Shown: in pieces, positions 7,340 to 59,247 of the stretch
How the letters are laid out: every line of letters starts with the position of its first letter
Numbering within the stretch: position 1 is the stretch's first letter
Source: Anaerolineae bacterium
GTDB lineage: Bacteria; Chloroflexota; Anaerolineae; Anaerolineales; UBA4823
Direction of reading: 5' to 3'
Assembly (NCBI GenBank): GCA_003327455.1
Contig: QOQU01000008.1
Coordinates: 889-64,888, forward strand
DNA length: 64,000 nucleotides
Position numbers and translations under genes: made by a program
Notes under the pieces: generated by a model
What the model was told of the DNA's origin: nothing
Seen by the model: only the letters and a program-made list of their open reading frames with translations
Database searches by the model: none

Positions 7340-8143
7340 ATGATGCTTCGTCCTGGGCCTCTACCGAAACATTATCAACTTAGCCAAATCCTGCGCCAAC
7401 GCATTCTGAAAGGAGAATTCCCAGCCGGCACCAAAATTCCTGGCGAGTGGCAACTCTCTCAGGAGTTCAATGTTAGCCGCGGCACGGTCAGGAAAGCCAT
7501 TGATACACTCCTTCATGAAGGGCTATTACGTACTGAACAAGGACAAGGCACATACGTTGTAGAAGACCCCTGGAGAAGCCGTCCTTTTCTTTTACTAAGC
7601 AATTTTAATGACCACATAAACCGCCAAAATCAAACTCCCAGAACGACTGTTTTGGAAAAAGTCATTCTTCCCGCATCCACGCAGGTGGCTCACCGCCTAT
7701 TGCTTGTCAAAGGTGAGGAAGTTATCTTGATTTCCCGTCTGCGTTGGGCAAACGGACAACCAGTCGTCTACGAACAACGTTATCTTGCCAAACGTATCTG
7801 CCCTCAACTCGTTCAGGAAGACCTTGAGAATCAGTCTTTTCACGAGCTTCTTGTCAAAAAATACCGCTTACCCCTCGTCAGAGTGCTTCATTCTATTGAA
7901 GCGCATGTGCTGACCGAGGAAGAAGCCAACCTCCTTCAAACCCAGGCTGGTAGAGCTGCTTTTTACATCGAACGACTGACGTACACCATCCTGGAAGGTA
8001 AAGAACATCCCGCAGTCTGGTATCTGGCTATCCATCTGGGTAACGAATATGCCTTTCATATCCAACAGATCTTTGGCAAAGGAGAAAGTGAGCCTGTGCT
8101 CACAGCAATTCCCTATAATGGAGGTGAGCTATCGACAAACTAG
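7340..8143 (+). CDS. hutC: GntR-family HutC-type transcriptional regulator (HTH + UTRA)
   Basis: LPKHYQLSQILRQRI...FNVSRGTVRKAI...QGQGTYV HTH, C-terminal UTRA-like domain, and linkage to hutU. Confidence 0.75.
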   Translation: MMLRPGPLPKHYQLSQILRQRILKGEFPAGTKIPGEWQLSQEFNVSRGTVRKAIDTLLHEGLLRTEQGQGTYVVEDPWRSRPFLLLSNFNDHINRQNQTPRTTVLEKVILPASTQVAHRLLLVKGEEVILISRLRWANGQPVVYEQRYLAKRICPQLVQEDLENQSFHELLVKKYRLPLVRVLHSIEAHVLTEEEANLLQTQAGRAAFYIERLTYTILEGKEHPAVWYLAIHLGNEYAFHIQQIFGKGESEPVLTAIPYNGGELSTN

Positions 8144-35088: not shown

Positions 35089-35100
35089 AAGCTCAAGCAC

Positions 35101-35186
35101 GAAAAGGCAAACCCGACGAAAGTCGGTGACGCAAAGCCATGGGTCTACCGTCATCGTTTGATGACCAGGACTGCCAGGTTACCGAA
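35101..35186 (+). ncRNA. c-di-GMP-I (GEMM) riboswitch 1
   Basis: GGCAAACCC-GACGAAAGTC-GGTGACGCAAAGCC...GGTCTA...GCCAGGTTACCGAA matches the GEMM consensus, with a GAAA tetraloop and G at the position equivalent to G20. Confidence 0.92.
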
Positions 35187-35249: not shown

Positions 35250-35277
35250 TTGAGTGCACTTTACCAATCTGATCCCG

Positions 35278-35367
35278 ACCGATAAAGGCAAACCCGGTGA
35301 AAGCCGGGGACGCAAAGCCATGGATCTACAGCCAGCCATGCTGGCCAGGATAGCCAGGTTACCGAAG
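35278..35367 (+). ncRNA. c-di-GMP-I (GEMM) riboswitch 2 (tandem)
   Basis: GGCAAACCCGGTGAAAGCCGGGGACGCAAAGCC...GATCTA...AGCCAGGTTACCGAA. Confidence 0.92.
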
Positions 35368-35384
35368 CAGTGGAGATTCTTGCC

Positions 35385-35416
35385 AACGGGCTTGGTTATC
35401 CAAGCCCGTTTTATTT
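35385..35416 (+). terminator. Expression-platform terminator of riboswitch 2
   Basis: AACGGGCTTGG-TTAT-CCAAGCCCGTT followed by TTATTT. Confidence 0.8.
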
Positions 35417-35430
35417 GGAGAGTAAATCGA

Positions 35431-37107
35431 ATGAAGACGAACCAACCTCGAACCAGATCAAGCGCCTTTCTCAGCCTATCAAGTCGAAAGGCGCTGAGCG
35501 GGTTTGGCATTTTGGGTGTCCTTCTCCTGATTCTCTCCATCTTACCCATTCGAACCGCCCAGGCTGCATCCTCCTCCAGCTTACCTGCCTGTCAGCCATT
35601 TGTGCAAGTCAATGACAATGCCTTCGGTCTCGGCGGTGGAGCAGATGGTACCTTCAGCTCCGAAGAGGGTTTTGAAGTGCTGGTCTTCAATGGGCAACTG
35701 TACCTTGGCATGGAAGCCGATAACTCCATGGGAGCGCGAATCTGGCGCACAAAAGCTGGCGTGACTGTTCCCTCTTCCCAAGCAGATTGGGAGGAAGTGG
35801 CAGCGAATCCCCAAGGATACCCCTTCGGGGTAAGCAATATCACCCAAAACGACCATATTGACAGCCTGGCTGAATTCAATGGCTATATCTATGCCAGCAC
35901 CGCCAATGGCGGCAGCAGTACATATGGAACACGGGTGTTTCGCAGCCTCACCGGTAATCCAAATAGCTGGGAAGATGCCTTAATCAACATCGGCGCCGGC
36001 TTTGGCAGCACACAGAACACAAATTTCAAAGATATGCAGGTGTTCAATGGCTGGTTGTGCGGCGGCACTCAGAACTGGCTTTACGGGGCTCAGGTCTGGT
36101 GCACCCAGGATGGCCTAAACTGGACGCAAAAAAATATCAGTGGGTTCGGCACTACCGAATACAACAACAAAACTGTCGAGGTCTGGTCGGGATACGTTTT
36201 TCAAGGAGCCCTGTATTTTGGCGTGCAAAATCTCGGCGCAACCCGCTCCAGTAACTATGATGATCTGGGAAAGCTGTATCGAACCCGCAACCTGAACGGC
36301 ACTCCGCAGTGGGAAGAGGTCTTTGTTAGCCTGCCCGGTTACCTGAATCGGGTCGATATCCTTGGGGAATTAAACGGTTATCTCTATGTTGCCAGTCGGG
36401 GTTCCAATGGCGGGACCATCATTTACCGCAGTCCAAACGGCGATCCTGGCACCTGGCAACCTGTCAGCCTTGAAGGGGTCAATGGTAACACCGCCAACAA
36501 CGGTGTGATTGTTGACAGCGCTGTGACTTATGAAGGTGGTTTATATGTGGCAGTTGGCAACAACAGCGGCTTTCAACTGTGGCGTACCTCAGGAGCTGAC
36601 CAGGGCACTGGATTGGTAGATTGGGAACAAGTGGGTGGAAGTGGTTTGAGTGATGCAAAGAATGTCCTCTCAGAGCTTGTGACCTTTAATGGTTATCTTT
36701 ATGCCTGGACAACCAATTACAGCCGCGGTCAACAGGTGTTACGTTCTAACTGCGCTGCTGGGGCGGTGCCGCTATCCCCAACCGCAACGAATACCTCCCA
36801 ACCAAGCCCTACCCCAACGGCAACTCAAACAACTCAACCCAGCCCTACCTCTACAGCTACCGTACCTCCCACAGCTAGCCCTACCCCCACGGTAACTCAA
36901 ACATCTCCAGTTAGCCCAACTGAAACGACTATCCCCACCCAAACTCCGGTTGCTTCTACCACACCCGCTCCCAGCCTGACACCAACCGCTACGCCCACTT
37001 CAGAGACACCACCGTCAGTCTGTCCGCAAGGTGATCAAAGCTGTCAAAGCTCCAATCCAAATAGTTCTCCATATAGCGTATTTATCCCCATTTTGATCAA
37101 ACCGTAA
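35431..37107 (+). CDS. Secreted beta-propeller-like protein with Thr/Pro-rich stalk and C-terminal VFIPILIK tail
   Basis: Signal peptide ending RTAQA, about 6 repeats of the type (L/F)xxFNGxLY...G..(I/V)WR, PT-rich linker. The start is moved to 35431 because 35254 lies within the riboswitch leader. Confidence 0.75.
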   Translation: MKTNQPRTRSSAFLSLSSRKALSGFGILGVLLLILSILPIRTAQAASSSSLPACQPFVQVNDNAFGLGGGADGTFSSEEGFEVLVFNGQLYLGMEADNSMGARIWRTKAGVTVPSSQADWEEVAANPQGYPFGVSNITQNDHIDSLAEFNGYIYASTANGGSSTYGTRVFRSLTGNPNSWEDALINIGAGFGSTQNTNFKDMQVFNGWLCGGTQNWLYGAQVWCTQDGLNWTQKNISGFGTTEYNNKTVEVWSGYVFQGALYFGVQNLGATRSSNYDDLGKLYRTRNLNGTPQWEEVFVSLPGYLNRVDILGELNGYLYVASRGSNGGTIIYRSPNGDPGTWQPVSLEGVNGNTANNGVIVDSAVTYEGGLYVAVGNNSGFQLWRTSGADQGTGLVDWEQVGGSGLSDAKNVLSELVTFNGYLYAWTTNYSRGQQVLRSNCAAGAVPLSPTATNTSQPSPTPTATQTTQPSPTSTATVPPTASPTPTVTQTSPVSPTETTIPTQTPVASTTPAPSLTPTATPTSETPPSVCPQGDQSCQSSNPNSSPYSVFIPILIKP

Positions 37108-48708: not shown

Positions 48709-48727
48709 CAAAGCGACAATTCAAGAT

Positions 48728-48852
48728 ACCTTCGGGGCAGGGTGCGGTCGGAAACGACCTATTCCCGATCGGCGGTAAAGCCCGCGAGCGCAAGAAAGCG
48801 CACGATTCGGTGGAACTCCGAAGCCGACGGTATAGTCCGGATGGAAGAAGGT
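48728..48852 (+). ncRNA. FMN riboswitch (RFN element)
   Basis: CTTCGGGGCAGGGTG...ATTCCCGATCGGCGGTAAAGCCCGCGAG...GATTCGGTGGAACTCCGAAGCCGACGGTATAGTCCGGATGGAAGAAG, with P1 ACCTTC/GAAGGT. Confidence 0.96.
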
Positions 48853-48902
48853 CAAGCAGGATAAAGTTTGCGCGCGCCGTTTCTTGACGGTGTGTAGAAT
48901 GC

Positions 48903-48932
48903 CCCGAGAACCAACTGGTTTTCGGGTTTTTT
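48903..48932 (+). terminator. First terminator hairpin downstream of the FMN aptamer
   Basis: CCCGAGAACC/GGTTTTCGGG followed by TTTTTT. Confidence 0.7.
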
Positions 48933-48964
48933 GTCAGAGAAGACAGTTATCCAGCATTGCACTT

Positions 48965-48999
48965 GCCCCGAATCGCGCTGATTCGGGGCTTTGGTTTTG
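48965..48999 (+). terminator. Second terminator-like hairpin downstream of the FMN aptamer
   Basis: GCCCCGAATC/GATTCGGGGC followed by TTTGGTTTTG. Confidence 0.6.
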
Positions 49000-49008
49000 A
49001 TAGACAAA

Positions 49009-49833
49009 ATGAACTTAATTGAGATACCCAAACGCTTTCCTTTCCAACGCCGGATCAGCCGCACACAACACGCGCTGACTCTGGCAGCATCTCTGGCAAG
49101 TGCCCTGCTTCTCTGGCACTTCGCTACTCAACTCTGGGAATTACCCCCATTCATCCTACCCTCGCCGGGACTGGTGGGACACCGTTTTCTTCAGGTGTTA
49201 TTGGATGGTAGCTTGCTGCGCCATACCGCCTATACGCTCTTGGAAGTCCTCTGTGGGCTGACCCTCGGTGTGCTGACCGCGACCCTGCTGGGTTACCTGT
49301 TAGCCAAATCGCACTGGTTTGAGCGGGTTTTGTCTCCTTACATTGTCGCCAGTCAGTCGATCCCAATCGTAGCGATTGCCCCGCTTCTGGTGATCTGGTT
49401 TGGACCTGGACTCTTCTCGAAAATCTTAATCTGCGCTCTGATCGTCTTCTTTCCGGTGCTGGTCAATACCATTGTAGGTTTACGGTCGGTGCCCGAGGAA
49501 TTGAGCGATCTGATGCGGTCGCTCAGAGCCAATCGCTGGCAAACCATCCGTTATCTGGAAGCACCGGCTGCCCTACCGGTCTTTCTAGGTGGATTGCGCA
49601 TTGGAGCCACCCTGTCGGTTATCGGTGCTGTAGTCGGCGAGTTTGTCGGCGCAGACCGCGGGCTTGGCTTTCTGGTCAACGTAGCGCGCGGTAAATATGA
49701 TACCCCGCTGGTTTTTGTAGCTGTGTTTACATTAATTGTGATGGCTTTATTGCTCTATACCAGCGTCTTTCTGATTGAAAGGCAGTTGCTTAACTGGCAA
49801 CAACGCCAGGAAGATTCCCGTTCACTATCATAA
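49009..49833 (+). CDS. ribX: ABC transporter permease, riboflavin uptake (RibX-like)
   Basis: SsuC/TauC-type permease (SQSIPIVAIAPLL, EAA-like loop) directly under an FMN riboswitch, as in the RibXY system described in Chloroflexus. Confidence 0.75.
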   Translation: MNLIEIPKRFPFQRRISRTQHALTLAASLASALLLWHFATQLWELPPFILPSPGLVGHRFLQVLLDGSLLRHTAYTLLEVLCGLTLGVLTATLLGYLLAKSHWFERVLSPYIVASQSIPIVAIAPLLVIWFGPGLFSKILICALIVFFPVLVNTIVGLRSVPEELSDLMRSLRANRWQTIRYLEAPAALPVFLGGLRIGATLSVIGAVVGEFVGADRGLGFLVNVARGKYDTPLVFVAVFTLIVMALLLYTSVFLIERQLLNWQQRQEDSRSLS

Positions 49834-49845
49834 AGGAGCTTTTCG

Positions 49846-50850
49846 ATGCGTCGTTCAACTTTCATCATAACCTTTTTTCTCTTGAGCGCGTTAGCTTCCG
49901 CTTGCGCTCAAAGGACAAACGTTCCCCAATCCGATAATCCCTCCACACAATCCCAAATCGATGCCGTCCGCCTGCCCATGGGATATATTCCCAATGTCCA
50001 GTTTGCCCCCTTCTATGTAGCCCAGGACTACGGCTACTTTTCCGAAGAAAAGATAGCTGTTGAATTCGATTACAGCTTTGAAACCGATGGCATTGCCCTG
50101 GTTGGCGCCAACAATTTGCAGTTCACGATGGCTTCCGGAGAACAAATCCTGCTTGCCCGCGCCCAGGGACTACCGGTCGTCTACGTCATGGCGTACTACC
50201 ATGCTTACCCGGTTGGTGTGGTTGCCTTTCCCGATCAGAACCTCAAAACTCCGTCTGACCTGAAAGGGAAAAAGATTGGTTTGCCGGGTCTCTTTGGGGC
50301 GAACTACATCGGGCTGCGCGCCCTGCTGAAAGTGGGTGAGGTGAGTGAAGCGGATGTCATACTCGACTCCATCGGCTATAACCAGGTCGAAGCCTTGATC
50401 GCCGGACAAGATCAAGCGGTTGTAATCTACGCCAACAATGAACCGATCCAACTGGCTGCCCAGGGGTATACGGTTGATCTACTCAAGGTGGCCGATTACG
50501 TTCAACTGGCTTCCAATGGGCTGGTAACCAACGAGCGCACTCTGACTGAAAACCCCGATCTGGTGCGCAGAATGACGCGTGCCATCCTGCGCGGGATGAC
50601 CTATGTAATCCAAAACCGTGATAAAGCTTATGAAATCTGCACCAAATACATCCCCGGCTTGACCGAAAGCGACGAACGCGTCCAGCGTGAAATTCTACGG
50701 GCGACCGTCGAGTATTGGAAGGCTCAGCAAATGGGCTTTTCCGACCCACAGGCCTGGCAAAACATGCATGATCTGCTCTTGGAAATGGGTCTGCTTCAGT
50801 CCGCCTTACCGATCGAGCAAGCCTACACCAATCAGTTTGTCACGCCCTGA
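49846..50850 (+). CDS. ribY: ABC substrate-binding lipoprotein, NMT1/THI5-like, riboflavin (RibY-like)
   Basis: Lipobox LASAC, MGYIPNVQFAPFYVA and LKGKKIGLPG; FMN-riboswitch context. Confidence 0.75.
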   Translation: MRRSTFIITFFLLSALASACAQRTNVPQSDNPSTQSQIDAVRLPMGYIPNVQFAPFYVAQDYGYFSEEKIAVEFDYSFETDGIALVGANNLQFTMASGEQILLARAQGLPVVYVMAYYHAYPVGVVAFPDQNLKTPSDLKGKKIGLPGLFGANYIGLRALLKVGEVSEADVILDSIGYNQVEALIAGQDQAVVIYANNEPIQLAAQGYTVDLLKVADYVQLASNGLVTNERTLTENPDLVRRMTRAILRGMTYVIQNRDKAYEICTKYIPGLTESDERVQREILRATVEYWKAQQMGFSDPQAWQNMHDLLLEMGLLQSALPIEQAYTNQFVTP

Positions 50851-50866
50851 ATCAGAAGGAGACAAA

Positions 50867-51682
50867 ATGGTACGCTCCGAACCTGAACAAACGACAACCT
50901 CATCTGCTGCGGAACACAAAACAGAAATATCGCCTGTGGCAATCGAAGTGCGTAACCTGAGCGTCACTTACTCCAATGGCAACGGAGGCTTGCGCGCGAT
51001 TCAGGACATATCATTTCGGGTTCAAGAACAAGAATTTGTCTGCGTTCTGGGGCCTTCCGGGAGTGGTAAATCTACCCTCTTACGCGTCCTGGCAGGATTG
51101 CTGACTCCCACGCAGGGAGAAGTCTTTTTCTATGGTCAACCGCTCACAGAACCCCGCCGTGAAATCGGTTTTGTTTTTCAAAAAGCCAACCTGATGCCGT
51201 GGCGAACTGTCCTTCAGAACATTTTATTGCCTCTGGAGCTGCAAAATGTACCCACTGCCGAAGCCCGACAGCGGGCAATGGAATTAATCGACCTGGTCGG
51301 TTTGCGCGGCTTTGAAGATTCATTACCTCGCGATCTGTCCGGAGGAATGGCACAGCGGGTAGCCATTGCCCGTGCCCTGGTTCATGACCCTCAAGTCCTT
51401 TTACTGGATGAACCTTTTGGTGGACTGGACGCCCTGACTCGCGAACGCATGGGCGATGAGTTGTTGCGTATCTGGCAGGCTCGCCAAAAAACGGTGGTCA
51501 TGGTCACCCACTCGATCCCTGAAGCGATCTATCTGTCTGACCGCATTTTGGTCTTCACTCCCCGACCCGGCAAACTCAGGCTGGATTTACCGGTCTATCT
51601 GCCTCGACCGCGCACCGATGAGATCCGCTATTCGCCAGCTTTCGGTGAACTGTCAAAGTGTCTGCGGGCGGAAATCGGCTAG
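50867..51682 (+). CDS. ABC transporter ATP-binding protein (TauB/SsuB-like)
   Basis: GPSGSGKST, LSGGMAQRVAIARAL and LDEPF. ATG at 50867 follows AAGGAG. Confidence 0.92.
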   Translation: MVRSEPEQTTTSSAAEHKTEISPVAIEVRNLSVTYSNGNGGLRAIQDISFRVQEQEFVCVLGPSGSGKSTLLRVLAGLLTPTQGEVFFYGQPLTEPRREIGFVFQKANLMPWRTVLQNILLPLELQNVPTAEARQRAMELIDLVGLRGFEDSLPRDLSGGMAQRVAIARALVHDPQVLLLDEPFGGLDALTRERMGDELLRIWQARQKTVVMVTHSIPEAIYLSDRILVFTPRPGKLRLDLPVYLPRPRTDEIRYSPAFGELSKCLRAEIG

Positions 51683-51737: not shown

Positions 51738-52664
51738 ATGAAAAAGGCATTCTGGATTTTTCTCTGCCTGAGTTTCTTTCTGATTTTGCCACCTGGGTTG
51801 GCAGAAGCCCAAACCCCCGCTTCCTTGACTCTGCGTTCCCTGGAAGTAGACATCTGGCCGGAATATGATCGCCCTTCTGTCCTGGTGATCTATCACCTCA
51901 ACCTGCCTGCCGAGGTACCTCTCCCTGCCGAACTGCGCATCCGCATTCCTGCTGTGGCCGGTGAGCCCCATGCTTTAGCCGTGCGTGAAATAGATGGTTC
52001 ACTCACCACGATTTCCTACACCCGCAATGTACTTGGAGATTGGAGCGAGATTGTCTTTACAACTGCCCTACCTGAAATCCAATTGGAATATTACGATCCA
52101 TCCCTGACGAAAAACGGCTCGCAGCGCAGCTTTCTGTATCAATGGACAGGAGATTACGCAGTTGAATCTTTAACCATTCAGATACAACAGCCCATCGGCG
52201 CGGCGGAAATGAAGATTACGCCCAACACGACAAACATTGCGGTCGGAAAAGACGGGCTCACCTACTATGTTACCCAGGTTGATTCGCTGGCAGCTAACCA
52301 AACCTTTGAGGTCAGCCTTCAATATCGAAAACCCAACGACTCTTTGACCGCAGAGAGTTTAGAGGTACAACCCAGCGCACCCATGAGCAATGTCACTTCC
52401 ACCACCCCTGTGACAGGTAATTTTATTCCCTGGCTTTTAGGTGGCCTGGGCCTTTTTCTAATCGTTGGAGCGGTAGCCTGGTGGTATTGGCAGGCGCGAA
52501 TGGTCAAGCCAAGCCCCAAAACCCGCCGACCACGCCACCGGCGGCTGGTGATTGAACCTCAGGCAGTCATTCCCGAAGGGGCGGTCTATTGTCATCACTG
52601 TGGCAAACGAGCGATACCTGGCGATCGCTTCTGTCGGGCATGTGGAACAAGGCTTCGTCAATAG
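51738..52664 (+). CDS. Exported, membrane-anchored protein with a C-terminal zinc ribbon
   Basis: Signal peptide ending LAEA, VDIWPEYDRPSVLVI, a TM segment near residue 235, and C-terminal CHHCG...CRACG. Confidence 0.75.
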   Translation: MKKAFWIFLCLSFFLILPPGLAEAQTPASLTLRSLEVDIWPEYDRPSVLVIYHLNLPAEVPLPAELRIRIPAVAGEPHALAVREIDGSLTTISYTRNVLGDWSEIVFTTALPEIQLEYYDPSLTKNGSQRSFLYQWTGDYAVESLTIQIQQPIGAAEMKITPNTTNIAVGKDGLTYYVTQVDSLAANQTFEVSLQYRKPNDSLTAESLEVQPSAPMSNVTSTTPVTGNFIPWLLGGLGLFLIVGAVAWWYWQARMVKPSPKTRRPRHRRLVIEPQAVIPEGAVYCHHCGKRAIPGDRFCRACGTRLRQ

Positions 52665-54276
52665 CCTGGCAAACCTCCTCCACAGTTCGAAAACCCTGGT
52701 CGGGGAACAGTTGTAGAACTTGCGCCTGAGGAATATCCAACGTTTGCAAAACTTCTACGGGCATCCCATCCCCGACTAATCGCCCGTTTTCGAGGATACA
52801 CAACCGATCGGTAAGGGTCAACATAAACTCGACATCATGAGTCACAATCAGAATTGCCATTCCTTTATCACGAAAATCGCGGAGCAACTTGCTCAGTCCG
52901 GATTTTGCTCTCTCGTCCAAACCGCGCGTTGGCTCGTCGAGAAGCAAAACCAGTGGCTGCGGAACGAGAATCGCCCCTAAAGCCACCCGCTGCCGCTCGC
53001 CAACGCTCAGATCGCGCGGATAACGGTCAGCATAGGTTGCAAGCCCCAACCTTTCTAATAAACTGCGAGCTTTTTCAACATCTTCAGGTAATGCATGGTT
53101 CCGGCAGGTGAGCAATATCTCTTCCAGGACCGTTTCTGAAAACAAGAGGGCATTGGGGTCTTGGGGCAAATAACCAATCAGACGAGCACGTTTCCAGGTC
53201 GGTAAAGTGGATAGGTCCTCCCCCAGCAATCGAATGCTTCCCTCCCGCAGAGGTGCCAGACCGAGAATCGCCCGCAGGAGAGTCGTTTTGCCCGCCCCGT
53301 TGCTGCCCATCAGACACAAAATCTGTGAAGCGTAGAGTTGTAAACTTACCCCACATAAAGCCCGTGTTTTCCCAAAGACAACACTGACATTTTCGAGCGA
53401 TAGAATTGCCTGCGTAGCTTCTTCTCTGCTGTGGGTGCTTTGAGAGGTAGACGAGCGATGATTAAGTCTGGCCAAACCCAAATTCTGAAGCATCTGGCGC
53501 CCTTCGGCAACGCTGAGTGGCAAAGGCCGCACGCCTAACCATTTACCAAGCTGCACAACCGGCGGCGCGGTATCCATCTGAAGGAGAATGTAGCGAGGAT
53601 CGCCCGCCAGGGGAGGCTTCTCTTCGCCCGGCAGATAGACCAGATAATCGGTGAAGTGCAGGAGACGATCTAAGCGATGTTCAGCAACGACAATGGTCAG
53701 GTTGCGCTGGCGCGCCAGATTCTGGATCAGGGTCAAGATCTCTTCTGCGGATTGTCCATCCAACTGGGAGGTGGGCTCATCAAGGACTAAGATAGAAGGC
53801 GCCAAGGACAATACCGTAGCAATCGCCACCTTTTGTTTTTCTCCGCCCGATAAACTCTCCAGCCGACGCTGGCGTAAATGGAGAATTCCCAGCGCTTGCA
53901 AGGTATCTGTGATGCGCTGACCAACCTCCGGCACCGGAATCGCGGCGTTCTCTAAATTAAAGGCAATCTCGTCTTCGACGCAATCCAGAATAAATTGCGT
54001 TTCCGGGTCCTGGAAAACGAAACCCACCTGGCGGCTCATTTGCTCCGGCCCTGCCTTCACGGGATTTGCGCCATTGACATCGATTTCGCCCTGCAAAATT
54101 CCCCCACTAAAATGGGGCACCAGGCCATTGATTAACCTTAATAGGGTGGATTTTCCGCTACCCGATGCTCCACAGACCAGGCAAAAACTTCCTGACGGGA
54201 TCGTAAAATTTGCCCCCCGGATGATCCACCGCTGATGAAAGGAATAAGAGAAGGAAACATTCGAAAAGCGAATCAT
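52567..54276 (-). CDS. ECF transporter duplicated ATPase (A-A', CbrU-like)
   Basis: Two ABC cassettes: GASGSGKST/LSGGEKQK and GSNGAGKTT/LSVGERQR. The start is placed at ATG 54276. Confidence 0.9.
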   Translation of the reverse strand: MIRFSNVSFSYSFHQRWIIRGANFTIPSGSFCLVCGASGSGKSTLLRLINGLVPHFSGGILQGEIDVNGANPVKAGPEQMSRQVGFVFQDPETQFILDCVEDEIAFNLENAAIPVPEVGQRITDTLQALGILHLRQRRLESLSGGEKQKVAIATVLSLAPSILVLDEPTSQLDGQSAEEILTLIQNLARQRNLTIVVAEHRLDRLLHFTDYLVYLPGEEKPPLAGDPRYILLQMDTAPPVVQLGKWLGVRPLPLSVAEGRQMLQNLGLARLNHRSSTSQSTHSREEATQAILSLENVSVVFGKTRALCGVSLQLYASQILCLMGSNGAGKTTLLRAILGLAPLREGSIRLLGEDLSTLPTWKRARLIGYLPQDPNALLFSETVLEEILLTCRNHALPEDVEKARSLLERLGLATYADRYPRDLSVGERQRVALGAILVPQPLVLLLDEPTRGLDERAKSGLSKLLRDFRDKGMAILIVTHDVEFMLTLTDRLCILENGRLVGDGMPVEVLQTLDIPQAQVLQLFPDQGFRTVEEVCQAIDEALFHMPDRSDRQVSLVCHSDDNRPPLRE

Positions 54277-54277
54277 G

Positions 54278-55321
54278 TCATAAAAAAGCCGCCACCAGAA
54301 GTGGACTGAGCGTTCCCAAGAAGAGACAAGCGACTCTGGGATCAAAAGGTGGAAGCGTCAAAACAGGGTAGGGAGTATAAGCCAAAAACGGCGCTTCAAG
54401 GATTAAGCTCTGGAAAATAAGGAAGATTAATAAAAAGGCACAACCGCTCATCGCCAAAGCATCTCGAAGGCGAAACGCCGTTGAGCGATAAACAGTGGTT
54501 CGTACCTGTCGTGATGCGGTGTAAATCAACACTCCAAAGGTGGTCATAGCTCCCCCAAAGAGAAAATTGGTCGCCAAAACGGGCAACCCCCAGAAGCGCG
54601 ACAACCAGCCTCCCAACAAAAAACCAAATCCAACCAAAAAAGCACCCCGCCAGAGCATCTGATGCGATGACGCCGAAGATCGAAGAAAACCCCGCGCCGT
54701 CATCACCTCCGCCAATTGAAAAGCATGTTCCAGAGAACTGACCAGAAGGGGTAGCAGCAAAGCCAGCTTATTTCGCAACCCGGTGAGGTTGTTGCCACGG
54801 ATGATCTGCGCTTCCTGAATCTGGCGGACTTCGCGTTGCAACAAAGGGACAAAGGTGATTGCAATTGAGCCAACAATGGCAACCGAATGAAAGGCGCGTG
54901 GCAACATGCGGAGAAAAGACGGGATCGAGACGTTGTGGTTGAAAACCCAAAACGCCAAAAGGATCACACTCAAAGCCAGACCGTTGGTAGCTCCATATAC
55001 AACGGCCTCCCAGGTAATAATGCCACTCAAGAGGGGAATCTCACCCGGCAGAACAAATATCACCCGCTCACCCACATGCACTGTCAGGGCATTGAAAATT
55101 GCGCCTAACGGTACAACCATGAGGCTCAGCCAGAAAGGAAAGGGAGCGTTTCCCCCTGCTAACTCCCCCATGCCTGCAGCGGCATGCACAATCGCCACAC
55201 ACAACCAGACCACCACCAGATAGAGAGGATTGCGCGTCAACGAGACGCACAGGAGAATTGTTGTCATCCAAGTTAGCCATACCCATGCATGAAAGGGTGC
55301 GGGCGTGTGTCCTTCTGGCAT
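54278..55321 (-). CDS. ECF transporter T component (CbiQ/EcfT-like)
   Basis: AQIIRG and MTARGF X-R-X motifs; hydrophobic. The start is placed at ATG 55321. Confidence 0.88.
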   Translation of the reverse strand: MPEGHTPAPFHAWVWLTWMTTILLCVSLTRNPLYLVVVWLCVAIVHAAAGMGELAGGNAPFPFWLSLMVVPLGAIFNALTVHVGERVIFVLPGEIPLLSGIITWEAVVYGATNGLALSVILLAFWVFNHNVSIPSFLRMLPRAFHSVAIVGSIAITFVPLLQREVRQIQEAQIIRGNNLTGLRNKLALLLPLLVSSLEHAFQLAEVMTARGFLRSSASSHQMLWRGAFLVGFGFLLGGWLSRFWGLPVLATNFLFGGAMTTFGVLIYTASRQVRTTVYRSTAFRLRDALAMSGCAFLLIFLIFQSLILEAPFLAYTPYPVLTLPPFDPRVACLFLGTLSPLLVAAFL

Positions 55322-55325
55322 CGGC

Positions 55326-56153
55326 TCACACCTCCGCAGCCAGGTAAACGAAGGTGAACCGTTCACGAAAACGGCGCAGCACTCGTAATGTAACCGGAGC
55401 CAGGGTTGCAATCAGCAGGACATTTCCCAGCGATCGACCGAGATCCCAGGTTAAAGACGTCACCAGGTAAAAGACGCCGTAGCGGGCAAGGGTCTCAGCA
55501 AAGGAAATGCCGGGTTGCCAGTATTGATCGGACGGTCCAATAAGAAATGGCCACGACCACAGATTCATGATTGCACCGTACAACAACCCCCAAAAAGCGC
55601 CAAAGACCGCCAGGGCAACCGTCTCTCCAATTTTCCCCTGCCATCCCAAACGGGATATCAGGGGAGAGAGGGCCGCAGCACTCATCCCCACCCAACCGGC
55701 GGTAAACATTTGACTTGGCAGCCAGGGGCCAACTCCACCGGTCAAAATCGCCGATACAAACAGGGTCATCGCCCCCATGAGAAAACCAAATTTAGAACCG
55801 AACAAATACCCGGATAAGATGATCAGGAAAAAGATCGGACTAAAGCCCCCCGGTCCCGGGATCGCAACCTCGATATAGCGCAAGACCGAATTCAAGGCAA
55901 CCAAAACCCCCATCAAGGCCACAAAACGGGCGTTCGCGGCGCTCTGTTGAGACTCAAATAGCAAGGCTACCACACACAAGCCTAAGATGAGCGTCATGGT
56001 CAAGGGCATCTCGCTCACACGGATGCCGGCCGGGCTGGGAGTTTGCTCGAACTGAGGTGAGAAAAACGGGTAGAGAAAGGAAAAACACCCCAGAAGCGTG
56101 CTGCTCAGGATCACCAGGTTACTCATCAGCCGTTCCAGCATTCTCTGCCTCAT
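55326..56153 (-). CDS. ECF transporter S component (CbrT-like, cobalamin)
   Basis: PGPGGFSPIFFLIILSGYLFG, GVGPWLPSQMF and DLGRSLGN motifs; downstream of a cobalamin riboswitch. Confidence 0.85.
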   Translation of the reverse strand: MRQRMLERLMSNLVILSSTLLGCFSFLYPFFSPQFEQTPSPAGIRVSEMPLTMTLILGLCVVALLFESQQSAANARFVALMGVLVALNSVLRYIEVAIPGPGGFSPIFFLIILSGYLFGSKFGFLMGAMTLFVSAILTGGVGPWLPSQMFTAGWVGMSAAALSPLISRLGWQGKIGETVALAVFGAFWGLLYGAIMNLWSWPFLIGPSDQYWQPGISFAETLARYGVFYLVTSLTWDLGRSLGNVLLIATLAPVTLRVLRRFRERFTFVYLAAEV

Positions 56154-57511
56154 AAAGCCCTTCTGCGCCGGATCAGGATGACCAAAAGAATCAACAAGCC
56201 TCCTACCAGGATAAAGAAAAACCCATAGGCAAGATCGAGAGAAGCAAGCCCGAAGTTGCGCAGACCCGGAATCTCCTTTTGCCTGTCACTTTCTTCAACC
56301 CCCTCGGATTTTCGAGTGACTTCAACAGCTGTAGCGGTTAAGGAGATGGATTGTAAATCAAGCGCAACTTGTGCCGCGGGGCTCACCTGCAATTGGGGAA
56401 GAGTCTGGGCTGGAGCAACCGTTGTGGCTGCCACTGCCATCCCAAACGGTAAGGTAATGGTCGGCGAAGGGGTCAGGGTCGTCGTCCGCAAAGGCAATTG
56501 GGTAATGGATCGTACAGTCGGTGTAAATGGGATTGGTGAGGCGGTTGGAACCAGGTTGGATGTAGCCGTCGGCGGTCTGGCGGTATAGGTTGAAGTTGGC
56601 GGCCTGGCGGTATAGGTTGAAGTTGGCGGACCGGCGGTATAGGTCAAAGTTGGTGACGGGGTAGAAGTAGCCGTATAGGTAGCCGTTGGGGGTGGAGCAC
56701 AGATTTGTTCAAAGGTATAAACAGGTGGCGTTGCTCGGCCATCTCCCCAAACCCAACCTTCCACCGCACCATGCGTAACAGGATAATTGCTGGCTCCCAG
56801 GTTGGAATAGTTCCATTTTGACCCATCGAAGTGCCAGTACGACCAGTAAAGATTTTCACCACTATTGAATTTACACCAGCAATCGTCGGCGGGACATCCG
56901 ACATTCGCAATAGCACAGACCGCCATACCCATGCCACTGGGAGAGCCAACGACGCCAATGTTGGCTGCCACCAGCACATCCCAACCTGTAGGGTTCGATT
57001 GGTTCAACGTTACACACCTGGTCTCGACTGAACCGGCTGCCAGTTGCACCACCAACCCCACCTGGATCGGGGATTGGGCGTAGCTCGTTGTATTCGCAGA
57101 CAGGCTCAGGATGACGAGACAGAGGGTGAGGAACAGGAGAAACAAGCCTGATTTTCCCTCACCCCTTGCCGGTCTACCTCCCCTTGCCCTTAGGGCGTAG
57201 GGCAGGGGGCGAGGGATGTCCCCCCTCGCCCTTCGGGCGAAGGGGCGGGGGTGAGGGCTTTGTCCTTCGCTCTGTAGAAGAGGGATTGGGGGTGAGGGCA
57301 CTCTCCCCTCGTCGTATGGACCAGGATTCGGGGTTGAGGGCAATTCTAATCCCTCATCCCCTACCCTTCTCCCTAAGGGAGAAGGGCGTCCAACTCTCCT
57401 CGCCCTTCGGGAGAGGGGGCGGGGGTGAGGGCATCCCCCCGCCATCCTTAACAATTTGACCCAGAACAATCTCCAAGATTCGCCTGAAATGTTCACAAGG
57501 ATTAACCCCAA
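56150..57511 (-). CDS. Surface protein with a transcobalamin-beta/DUF4430-like domain, Thr/Pro stalk and C-terminal TM anchor; N-terminus contains an in-frame repeat array
   Basis: VCAIANVGCPADDCWC...YWSYWH...GAS..V.HGAVEGWVWG; TM segment plus RRRR tail. The true start is uncertain. Confidence 0.7.
   Translation of the reverse strand: MGLILVNISGESWRLFWVKLLRMAGGCPHPRPLSRRARRVGRPSPLGRRVGDEGLELPSTPNPGPYDEGRVPSPPIPLLQSEGQSPHPRPFARRARGDIPRPLPYALRARGGRPARGEGKSGLFLLFLTLCLVILSLSANTTSYAQSPIQVGLVVQLAAGSVETRCVTLNQSNPTGWDVLVAANIGVVGSPSGMGMAVCAIANVGCPADDCWCKFNSGENLYWSYWHFDGSKWNYSNLGASNYPVTHGAVEGWVWGDGRATPPVYTFEQICAPPPTATYTATSTPSPTLTYTAGPPTSTYTARPPTSTYTARPPTATSNLVPTASPIPFTPTVRSITQLPLRTTTLTPSPTITLPFGMAVAATTVAPAQTLPQLQVSPAAQVALDLQSISLTATAVEVTRKSEGVEESDRQKEIPGLRNFGLASLDLAYGFFFILVGGLLILLVILIRRRRAL
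56571..56651. repeat. 3 x 27-bp coding tandem repeat
   Basis: GGCGG(T/C/A)C(T/C)GGCGGTATAGGT(TG/CA)AAGTT in three copies. On the minus strand it encodes the (PTSTYTARP)n stalk. Confidence 0.9.
57156..57432. repeat. Cluster of about 7 GC-rich REP-like palindromic units (CCCTCACCCC...CCCnnnnGGG.GAGGGG type)
   Basis: Units occur in both orientations, e.g. CTCTCCTCGCCCTTCGGGAGAGGGGGCGGGGGTGAGGGC, CCCTCATCCCCTACCCTTCTCCCTAAGGGAGAAGGGC and CCCCCTCGCCCTTCGGGCGAAGGGGCGGGGGTGAGGGC. Confidence 0.8.
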
Positions 57512-57561
57512 TTTCTCCAGATAATCAAGAACCTCAACTGCTCAACCATTAACCTAACCAA

Positions 57562-58929
57562 TTAACGGCTGATTGTTGGCAAAAAGCTAACCTTACATGC
57601 TTCAACCGCACGAATCGCAAACGGCGCAGGTCTTCCTAGCAAAGCCGGGATTGCCTGTTGAGTGGCCAATAAGTTAGAGCCCAGCGATGGTTGCCATTCC
57701 AGACTCCCATCGGCAAGCTGAACCGTAGCCAGAAAGTCAATGGCTGTCTTACCGCCTTCCTGCCAGGCAGCAGAAGTAGGGTCTTGCCCAACGGCGTAAA
57801 TCGCCTGCAAGACATAGGCGGTTGAGTTCGCATCTGAGGCCGTACCCCAGGTTGAGTCGGGGTCATAAGTAAAACCGCCATCGTTATTTTGAGCTGACTT
57901 GATGAAATTCAAGCCGCTTACAATGACCGGGTCACCCGGGTCAACCCCCGCCCCAACCAAAGCCTGAATCGCCAATGCGGTCGTATTGGTGTCTGCTGTC
58001 CATCCATCTGACCATTCCCAGCCACCGGTTGGTAAGGACAGATTTTTTAGATAAGTCACCGCATCAGCCGGAACAGTCTGACTCAGCGCCAGTGTTCCCA
58101 AAATCGCCCATGCCTGTGGGCCTGCGTCCGGATGATATTTTCCTGTTGCCGGGTCATAATAATCAGCGGGACTCCTTGCCTGAAATGGGAAGCATAATTG
58201 AGTAGAACTTGCTCCAACAGCAAACTTACCTGCTCCACTGGCTGAGTTTTTCGTAAAATTTGATCCATTTGCCATCATGTAACCAAGTATTGAAGCAGTA
58301 GAGATATTCTGCCTCCACTCACTTGCCTTATGATGATTTGCGCCAATGGCAAGCAAACTCTCGACTGAACTTGATGCGGCGCTACTCGGTGAGCCATAGC
58401 CGCCATCGCTGTTCTGCTGGTTTTTCAGCCATTGCAACGCCTTCCAGGCGCGCTCCAGTTGGGGGTAAGGCAGAATCGACTGCCCGCCCCATTCTCCCCA
58501 GCGCCAGCCGTCTACAGCTCCATCAGTTAGCGTTGTCGAAGACGCCCCTGAACTGTGACCCTGCCAGGCAGTTCCATCCCAGAATTCGTAATTCCAAAAC
58601 GTACTTCCCCCACAGAAACAGTCATCCGCCGGACAACCAACCCCCTCGATGGAACAAACAGCTTTTCCCCATGGAGTATCTGCGGTCACCACCTCCAGCC
58701 CGCTATTTAACAGAGCGTCTAACCCTGTAATGGTGGAGGAAGAAAAACTCACCTTGCGAATCAAACGATCGGTGGTCGAGAACTGAACGACAACACTGAC
58801 GCTGTTGTCGGCGGCAGGAGCGTTATCCATCGCTGCCCGTACAACCTGAAAAAGCGGCGCAGGGATAATCATCCCGCCCAGAAGAACAAAGATCAGAATG
58901 GTGAAAAGGAAATTTTTGCGTGAGTACAT
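57562..58929 (-). CDS. Secreted protein: transcobalamin-beta/DUF4430-like domain plus prenyltransferase/squalene-oxidase-repeat alpha-barrel; probable corrinoid-binding protein
   Basis: VCSIEGVGCPADDCFC..FWNY; repeats WLKNQQNSDGGY, FIKSAQNNDGGF and DANSTA; tail SFLPTISR. It is the first gene after the cobalamin riboswitch. Confidence 0.75.
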   Translation of the reverse strand: MYSRKNFLFTILIFVLLGGMIIPAPLFQVVRAAMDNAPAADNSVSVVVQFSTTDRLIRKVSFSSSTITGLDALLNSGLEVVTADTPWGKAVCSIEGVGCPADDCFCGGSTFWNYEFWDGTAWQGHSSGASSTTLTDGAVDGWRWGEWGGQSILPYPQLERAWKALQWLKNQQNSDGGYGSPSSAASSSVESLLAIGANHHKASEWRQNISTASILGYMMANGSNFTKNSASGAGKFAVGASSTQLCFPFQARSPADYYDPATGKYHPDAGPQAWAILGTLALSQTVPADAVTYLKNLSLPTGGWEWSDGWTADTNTTALAIQALVGAGVDPGDPVIVSGLNFIKSAQNNDGGFTYDPDSTWGTASDANSTAYVLQAIYAVGQDPTSAAWQEGGKTAIDFLATVQLADGSLEWQPSLGSNLLATQQAIPALLGRPAPFAIRAVEACKVSFLPTISR

Positions 58930-58989
58930 GTTTTACCTCCGTCAGGTATCAGATATAGAACCAGAATTGCCTGCGGAGGAGGCCTGTTT

Positions 58990-59020
58990 CCAAAACGAAA
59001 CCCGCCCTGATTCGGGCGGG
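58990..59020 (-). terminator. Expression-platform terminator of the cobalamin riboswitch
   Basis: Minus strand CCCGCCC-GAATCA-GGGCGGG followed by TTTCGTTTTGG. Confidence 0.65.
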
Positions 59021-59098
59021 AGGCTTTGGTTCTTTCTTCGCGTGGGGAAATACGCTCAGAATGCCCGGCCTCCCTTGCCGCGAGGGAGATGACGAGCA

Positions 59099-59227
59099 AG
59101 ATACAGGCGGGTACTCGGGCTTCGCACTTTGTGCGCTACCGTTGCGGGACAGCGCCGGACTTCCCCTTCGGGTCACCGGCTTCCCCCATTCTGCGCCATG
59201 CATCCGGGCATTGGCGCACCTGTATCT
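59099..59227 (-). ncRNA. Cobalamin (AdoCbl) riboswitch
   Basis: Minus strand AGATACAGGTGC...GGGGGAAGCCGGTG...GAAGTCCGGCGCTGTCCCGCAACGGTAG...AAGCCCGAGTACCCGCCTGTATCT, with a 9-bp P1 and a downstream CTCCCTCGCGGCAAGGGAG hairpin. Confidence 0.93.
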
Positions 59228-59247
59228 GGCTATCAGAATTTGGGATA

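Follow-up and report, generated by a model that had tools for sequence, protein, structure and literature searches.

What is the role of two predicted exported proteins that precede an energy-coupling factor (ECF) transporter in an operon headed by a cobalamin riboswitch? The question is raised by a locus in a 64,000-nucleotide stretch of DNA from a hot-spring Anaerolineae bacterium (Chloroflexota; assembly GCA_003327455.1, contig QOQU01000008.1, positions 889 to 64,888 of the forward strand), referred to below as the window. An earlier note on this stretch had described a riboswitch-led ECF operon fronted by two transcobalamin-like surface proteins and had suggested that these form a two-stage relay for corrinoids. 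On the minus strand, the cobalamin riboswitch is followed by a candidate intrinsic terminator and five closely packed genes, separated by small gaps or joined by overlapping stop and start codons, which encode the two proteins in question, here called P1 and P2, followed by the S component, the T component and a double ATPase (Table 1). We consider it likely that this is a B12-repressed operon for the capture and import of corrinoids, a reading that draws on the folds of P1 and P2, the type of transporter, the regulation and conservation of the gene order and the corrinoid requirements of the host.

The connection to B12 carriers begins with a domain common to both proteins. Residues 44-146 of P1 and residues 151-257 of the P2 open reading frame (ORF) aligned with 41% identity over 107 columns (E 5e-22), which is far beyond chance, and the motifs VC.I..VGCPADDC.C, YW/FW, GAS and GW.WG, from which the earlier note had deduced a shared four-cysteine domain, were present in both. 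These two are the only copies in the genome. An AlphaFold2 (AF2) model of the P2 domain built from 33 sequences reached a predicted local distance difference test (pLDDT) score of 93.6, and in a Foldseek search against the Protein Data Bank (PDB) all 19 matches at E<=1e-3 belonged either to the beta domains of transcobalamin, haptocorrin and intrinsic factor or to a DUF4430-type bacterial protein with the same fold, 3u7z; the next match was found at E 0.058. A comparison with VIA gave Z 11.9-13.0 for 15 entries, again B12-carrier beta domains and 3u7z, and 6.2 for the next fold, with haptocorrin (4kki) as the best example (Z 13.0, root-mean-square deviation (rmsd) 1.7 A, 98 residues). Within the model, helix 37-44 is followed by strands 49-53 and 56-62, an extra beta-hairpin which, as far as the available text of Burroughs et al. 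(2007, PMC1796856) goes, corresponds to the insert through which members of the transcobalamin clade contact B12. Alignment of 30 family domains with five DUF4430 domains from other Chloroflexota genomes by hhalign resulted in 81% probability (E 1.2e-5, 85 columns), support that is moderate given the small target alignment of five sequences. On the strength of these models the shared domain has the transcobalamin beta-domain fold and is a remote relative of DUF4430 with a sequence family of its own. The structural comparison with transcobalamin and intrinsic factor that the earlier note had proposed as a check thus returned a match for the beta domain and upheld the suspected resemblance, even though the Pfam model for DUF4430 was silent.

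Among 30 aligned domains from relatives, two of the four motif cysteines were invariant and the other two near-invariant, being jointly missing in two P1 homologues, and the P2 branch carries additional cysteines, likewise in pairs. Since such paired gain and loss is expected of disulfides in exported proteins, the cysteines are best read as putative disulfides. A four-cysteine metal or iron-sulfur site was rejected, since the cysteines belong to exported proteins, no more than two are invariant and the rest come and go in pairs. According to pre-computed Pfam annotation, PF28005.1 is present on most P2 homologues and on some long P1 homologues, and a curated family for the shared beta domain (PF28005) may therefore already exist. 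Run against 1.84 billion representatives, the beta-domain profile matched 4059 clusters (50% identity) at E<=1e-3. Some of the matched proteins contain several copies: P0278, P0241 and P0243, which are large (775-1021 aa), carry two to five, and relatives of P1 of ~587 aa contain one extra copy. In a sample of 201 Chloroflexota genomes the profile matched 42 (a count that includes one unpublished genome, G173), distributed over 24 of 123 genera, compared to 5 of 201 for Pfam DUF4430.

P1 continues beyond the beta domain into an alpha-barrel. Its AF2 model (36 sequences, pLDDT 90.8, predicted template modelling (pTM) score 0.88) has strands at residues 42-145 and helices at 155-430, and Pfam matched the barrel with SQHop_cyclase_C (38.7 bits, cut-off 26.1) as well as Prenyltrans, so that model and Pfam agree with the prenyltransferase-type repeats and the beta-then-alpha order read earlier from the sequence. 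The further proposal that this is the second fold of the animal B12 carriers stood in part. The fold class is common to these carriers, and transcobalamin appeared at rank 16 in the Foldseek search with the barrel, but judged from the model the likeness is one of shared fold and not specifically carrier-like: the VIA comparison placed squalene-hopene cyclase (2sqc_A) at Z 24.2 with an rmsd of 3.0 A over 263 residues, and drimenyl diphosphate synthase was among the further best sequence and fold matches. Cobalamin_bind was not listed for the barrel at E<=10, and no B12 carrier was found among the phmmer matches to PDB sequences. The same matches favor an alternative in which the barrel is an enzyme, be it a terpene cyclase, a prenyltransferase or a corrinoid-modifying enzyme, and an active cyclase or prenyltransferase is what the earlier note had named as incompatible with its reading. 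Class II terpene cyclases depend on the catalytic motif DxDD. It is absent from P1, and among 36 aligned family members a single one showed D.DD, at a position that is not conserved; the barrel is nearest to squalene-hopene cyclase in fold, but without conservation of the catalytic motif. Because DxDD is not conserved and P1 carries an export signal, P1 is unlikely to be an active cyclase. The signal peptide and the conserved cysteine pairs also point to an extracellular location, where isoprenoid diphosphates are not expected, and the barrel shares its chain with a B12-carrier-type beta domain and is encoded behind a B12 riboswitch. We therefore regard an enzymatic role of the barrel as extremely improbable.

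The transporter genes provide a second line of evidence for corrinoid import. The S component exceeded the cut-off of Pfam ECF_trnsprt (PF12822; 51 bits versus 30.7). A phmmer search of the PDB with the single S sequence gave nothing useful, and a profile of 19 orthologues retrieved one significant match, 6fnp_A (CbrT; E 1.5e-5, next E 2.8), which suggests a distant relationship to CbrT. In the available text on CbrT (6FNP chain A), this protein carries both cobalamin and cobinamide (PMC5997447). The T component had no Pfam match even at E<=10, while the corresponding 19-orthologue profile matched EcfT chains in the PDB (4huq_T, E 4.7e-14; 5d3m_D/6fnp, E 1.1e-12). EcfT proteins have two conserved arginine-containing coupling motifs, and AQxxRG and ARG were invariant in the 19 T sequences. 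The ATPase contains two ABC_tran domains (2e-59) and scored 324.9 bits with TIGR04520 ECF_ATPase_1 (cut-off 315). Together, S, T and the ATPase are predicted to form an ECF transporter of the dedicated (group I) type. With the Rfam model RF00174 matching the leader, these family and orthologue profiles substantiate the riboswitch-led ECF operon described before.

Sequence features also agree with the proposal that P1 is released or tail-sorted and P2 stalked and membrane-anchored. P1 begins with a signal peptide and ends in a near-invariant cysteine and a short tail, both conserved in the 36 aligned homologues, most of which have the canonical form Y-L-P-L-I/V-x-R. The NCBIfam model NF050076 (sort_motif_YLP, 11 positions) gave no match to the P1 tail at E<=10, and the 33 places that it matches in the genome do not include this tail, which appears to be a diverged form of the YLP-box. 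The pattern [YF][LF]P[LI][ILV]x[RK], which the P1 tail fits, forms the C-terminus of 38 ORFs of at least 150 aa in the genome versus 3.3 expected from its internal frequency, and 27 of these 38 have a signal-peptide-like start compared to 71 of 400 random ORFs. The tail probably keeps P1 at the cell envelope. One YLP-tailed ORF of the window (~35254-37104, plus strand) starts just after two c-di-GMP-I riboswitches that lie in tandem (35096-35186 and 35277-35366). In P2 (331-aa numbering), hydrophobic segments span residues 1-19 and 307-325, the former belonging to a signal peptide with an A-Q junction and the latter to a C-terminal transmembrane helix followed by RRRR. Residues 136-300 (165 residues) consist to 55% of Pro, Thr, Ser and Ala. 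Contigs of three of four independent metagenome runs have a 27-nt in-frame deletion in this stalk at 56577. The population thus contains stalks of different length, which is in keeping with a spacer role.

To place the operon among its relatives, each species was represented by one genome in a scan that yielded 334 P1 relatives; the best 79 loci were analyzed and all belong to Chloroflexota. The order P1-P2-S-T-A was found in most of the 79 loci when mapped with tblastn. Of the 52 loci with at least 5.5 kb of downstream sequence, 42 continue with P2-S-T-A, nine with P2 only and one with neither, and P2 follows P1 in 51. The riboswitch, one of two cobalamin riboswitches in the genome, is similarly conserved. 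The Rfam model matched in each of the 17 loci submitted, and a covariance model built from those 17 hits and run on the 79 loci gave 76 matches; the 17 loci from which it was built match by construction. A riboswitch was present within 900 nt upstream of P1 in 65 of 74 evaluable loci and further upstream on the same strand in another six; five of the 79 loci were not evaluable. The terminator hairpin in the window lies ~70 nt past the aptamer and ~60 nt ahead of the P1 ATG and, as a pattern match only, would make the riboswitch an OFF switch.

Nine loci in which the pair stands without ECF genes downstream, along with the occurrence of P1-type tails on many unrelated exported proteins of the genome, would be compatible with P1 and P2 being envelope proteins unrelated to the cargo, with a function in adhesion or the cell wall, that are co-transcribed with the transporter by chance gene order. 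This explanation appears very unlikely to us: stand-alone P1-P2 pairs retain the cobalamin riboswitch in front, P2 follows P1 in all but one of the 52 loci with S-T-A present in 42, and the fold evidence favors B12 carriers. A few loci differ in arrangement. The P1-P2 pair is tandemly duplicated in L031 and L032, and tandem cobalamin riboswitches precede P1 in L064 and L074. A split form occurs in L063 (6860-9754), where a beta-domain gene (166 aa), a riboswitch (7430-7588), an alpha-barrel-only gene and P2 follow each other; the alpha-only gene has its own signal peptide and YLP tail, and the sole riboswitch found in that locus comes only after the first beta gene.

The gene content of the host is consistent with a need for external corrinoids. 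In this genome, which is 97.9% complete, no match was found to CbiF/CobM or CbiA/CobB, the two corrin-ring synthesis genes searched, while MetH, several corrinoid-protein paralogues and NrdJ are encoded. The second cobalamin riboswitch (G000:C8:124500-134400, L084) heads btuF-btuC-btuD-cobA-cobT-cobS, a CbiZ-like gene and cbiB, a complete set for corrinoid uptake, salvage and remodelling. Because neither synthesis gene was matched and MetH, NrdJ and salvage genes are present, the organism looks like a corrinoid salvager that depends on an imported corrin ring.

A working model for the operon would start with the riboswitch. At high intracellular cobalamin the terminator hairpin would form and transcription would halt ahead of P1, while at low cobalamin all five genes would be transcribed. 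The exported P1 would represent a transcobalamin in circularly re-ordered form, in which the beta-grasp domain precedes the barrel, and most likely clamps the corrinoid between both. A flexible, membrane-anchored Pro/Thr stalk would present the second, paralogous beta domain, that of P2. The corrinoid would then reach the CbrT-like S component and move inward by means of the dedicated EcfT and double-ATPase module. Whether the two proteins act in sequence is a separate matter. That envelope-held P1 catches the corrinoid between beta domain and barrel, passes it to the beta domain of stalked P2 and from there to the S component, as in the relay of the earlier note, is a tentative proposal that we find rather doubtful. 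Equally doubtful is its corollary, according to which the two beta domains are non-redundant and the split, duplicated and multi-beta relatives represent variants of a modular capture chain.

Several observations weigh against the reading of the operon as a system for corrinoid capture and import. For the barrel, intrinsic factor scored only Z 18.9 in the VIA comparison and ranked 44, behind squalene-hopene cyclase. Pfam DUF4430 (PF14478) matched neither beta domain at E<=10 and nothing anywhere in the genome at E<=1, Cobalamin_bind matched neither P1 nor P2, and a P2-family profile run against PDB sequences found no B12 carrier but low-complexity linker matches only. The terminator scan showed no enrichment, with 13 terminator-like sites in the region versus 10.5 expected from shuffles, and in three of the 74 evaluable loci, two of which have less than 410 nt of upstream sequence, the riboswitch was not found. 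In the nine loci without ECF genes beside P1-P2, unrelated genes are located downstream, including, in one locus, a gene for a PduO-type adenosyltransferase. B12 riboswitches also govern cobalt transporters and B12-independent enzymes, so that regulation alone does not fix the cargo. In addition, a riboswitch-controlled BtuFCD is already present in the genome, so that the P1-P2-ECF system would be at least partly redundant or different in substrate range.

These points lead to the main rival explanation, in which the cargo is another tetrapyrrole or a metal (heme, cobalt or an incomplete corrin precursor) and the riboswitch merely couples expression to B12 status. A further point against corrinoids as cargo comes from the ECF operon lsa1836-1840 of Lactobacillus sakei, which encodes separate alpha-like and beta-like proteins and is reported, in the available text of the preprint, to serve heme uptake (bioRxiv 10.1101/864751). 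With the separate BtuFCD and the CbiZ-like and CbiB proteins in place, the second system could specialize in cobinamide or incomplete corrinoids, and cobinamide is also carried by CbrT according to the accessible text (PMC5997447). On the other hand, CbrT, and not CbiM/N, was the single significant structural relative found for the S component, the beta-domain fold matches only B12 carriers and 3u7z, and the riboswitch is near-universal ahead of P1 (65 of 74 loci). As for heme, we know of no heme uptake genes under B12 riboswitches. Such a different cargo consequently seems improbable to us, and corrinoid capture and import is the reading that we prefer.

Systems of this kind were already predicted in 2007, as the available text of Burroughs et al. 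(Biol Direct 2:4, PMC1796856) indicates, and are not a new idea. These authors described a bacterial transcobalamin clade of SLBB domains combined with an alpha/alpha toroid in CbiO/CbiQ-type operons, in which a secreted transcobalamin-type beta-grasp domain is fused to the toroid (in both orders among the bacterial fusions), a second paralogous extracellular beta-domain protein is encoded in the operon next to ABC ATPase and CbiQ-like genes, and the hosts, which lack B12 synthesis, were predicted to scavenge B12 or its precursors. The locus studied here resembles these systems in all of these respects. It differs in that the clade was called a Gram-positive innovation in that article, whose main text does not contain the string 'Chloroflex' (additional files may list members) and, as far as available, makes no link to riboswitches; the domains of the present locus moreover escape Pfam DUF4430 and form their own family with paired cysteines. 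A second related system, the Lactobacillus delbrueckii importer ECF-CbrT (PDB 6FNP; Santos et al. 2018, PMC5997447), has an S component specific for cobalamin and cobinamide; it is linked to the present locus through the S profile (E 1.5e-5) and through its EcfT, which matches the T profile. In the available text, CbrT has 182 aa, shares its ECF module with other S components and is not mentioned in connection with a riboswitch. In contrast, the S component of the window has 275 aa and is served by a dedicated module from its own operon, in which the genes for the two exported proteins with transcobalamin-like folds come first.

Compared to animal transcobalamin, intrinsic factor and haptocorrin (2bb5, 2pmv and 4kki), the beta domain agrees with Z 11.9-13.0 and rmsd 1.7-2.7 A over 96-103 residues, and the barrel agrees with intrinsic factor at Z 18.9. 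The order of domains is reversed (alpha then beta in the animal carriers), sequence similarity is not detectable, the barrel is nearer to terpene cyclases, and a second beta domain is located on a separate anchored protein. The L. sakei operon shares with ours an ECF S-T-A set and two exported proteins that were modelled on the alpha and beta domains of transcobalamin; in the available text of the preprint (10.1101/864751) the two domains are separate, heme is claimed as cargo and no riboswitch is mentioned. A similar split form exists among the relatives of the present locus in L063. NCBIfam models of Streptomyces origin matched P1 (SCO2321_fam, E 1.2e-20, 73.8 versus a cut-off of 300) and P2 (SCO2322_fam, E 3.9e-5, 24.1 versus 85), with scores far below the curated cut-offs, which suggests a related gene pair in Actinobacteria. 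Literature searches found nothing on SCO2322, on DUF4430 with cobalamin in bacterial uptake, or on ECF transporter, cobalamin riboswitch and prenyltransferase jointly, and the available text of PMC2667541, which concerns B12 riboswitches, ECF and Chloroflexi, does not mention a P1-P2-ECF system. A B12-binding test of such bacterial proteins was not found in the searchable literature, which excludes subscription journals and supplements. What the present analysis adds is the fold and profile evidence for a Chloroflexota branch that is invisible to DUF4430, the riboswitch and operon counts, the distant link of S to CbrT, the tail and stalk features and the salvager context.

The features of the locus are collected in Table 1. 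The end coordinate of the earlier note (59227) is 11 nt short of the 5' end of the aptamer. Mechanically called ORFs are longer than the likely genes for P2 (56150-57511), T (54278-55411) and the ATPase (52567-54345). The first ~120 codons of the P2 ORF are a translation of the GC-rich intergenic repeat with its five copies, and the likely TTG start of P2 has a Shine-Dalgarno-like GAGGGA upstream and the signal peptide after it. GGAGG is located 8 nt upstream of the P1 ATG, the S-component ATG overlaps the P2 stop codon, and the ATPase ATG overlaps the stop codon of T.

Table 1. Features of the P1-P2-ECF locus; positions refer to the window.
Feature	Position	Strand	Basis and details
Cobalamin riboswitch aptamer	59089..59238	-	Rfam RF00174, 63.4 bits (gathering score 31.5), E 2.4e-13, full model 1-189
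Putative intrinsic terminator (riboswitch expression platform, OFF switch)	58991..59020	-	CCCGCCC-GAATCA-GGGCGGG, 7 G-C pairs, then TTTCGTTTTG; pattern match only
P1, 455 aa	57562..58929	-	Signal peptide ~1-33; transcobalamin-beta-like domain ~42-146; (alpha/alpha)6 barrel ~155-433; C-terminal Cys and YLP-box-like tail 445-455
GC-rich hairpin repeat array in the P1-P2 spacer, five copies of 41-42 nt	57182..57432	.	Repeat search
P2, 331 aa, likely from TTG 57145	56150..57145	-	Signal peptide; transcobalamin-beta-like domain; Pro/Thr-rich stalk; C-terminal transmembrane helix and RRRR
ECF S component, 275 aa, distantly CbrT-like	55326..56153	-	Pfam ECF_trnsprt PF12822; orthologue profile
ECF T component (EcfT), 347 aa, most likely from ATG 55321	54278..55321	-	Orthologue profile; GGAGG before ATG
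Fused double ECF ATPase (A-A'), 569 aa, most likely from ATG 54276	52567..54276	-	ABC_tran x2; TIGR04520

The genes flanking the operon, a flavin mononucleotide (FMN)-riboswitch-led transporter and a zinc-ribbon membrane protein on one side and cytochrome c maturation genes on the other, are not part of the unit. The transporter locus (48724-51682) encodes an NMT1/THI5-like binding protein and an ABC ATPase behind the FMN riboswitch, which scored 95.7 bits, and may constitute a riboflavin-related ABC uptake system. The repeat array between P1 and P2 belongs to a family whose 12-mer core has 72 occurrences genome-wide, grouped into 42 clusters that are often arrays with the same period. One contig of an independent metagenome run spans the array, and its site attracts many other copies in metagenome contigs; as far as can be seen, it is outside the function of the system. 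The locus was present and near-identical in contigs of four DNA runs, and near-identical copies of 56150-59240 (80-98% of sampled words) were detected in 20 metagenome runs from at least 17 studies, mostly labelled as hot springs, six of the 20 runs being flagged as possible sources of the analyzed DNA.

Because the DUF4430 model misses these beta domains, surveys of B12 uptake that rely on it could overlook them. ECF transporters have been described as a class without soluble binding proteins, as the available text of the L. sakei preprint has it (10.1101/864751). The relay, if true, would mean that binding proteins assist a vectorial route into such a transporter. Should P1 and P2 bind corrinoids, transcobalamin would have bacterial counterparts that feed an ECF importer, which would bear on the competition for a scarce cofactor among B12-dependent organisms that do not produce it.

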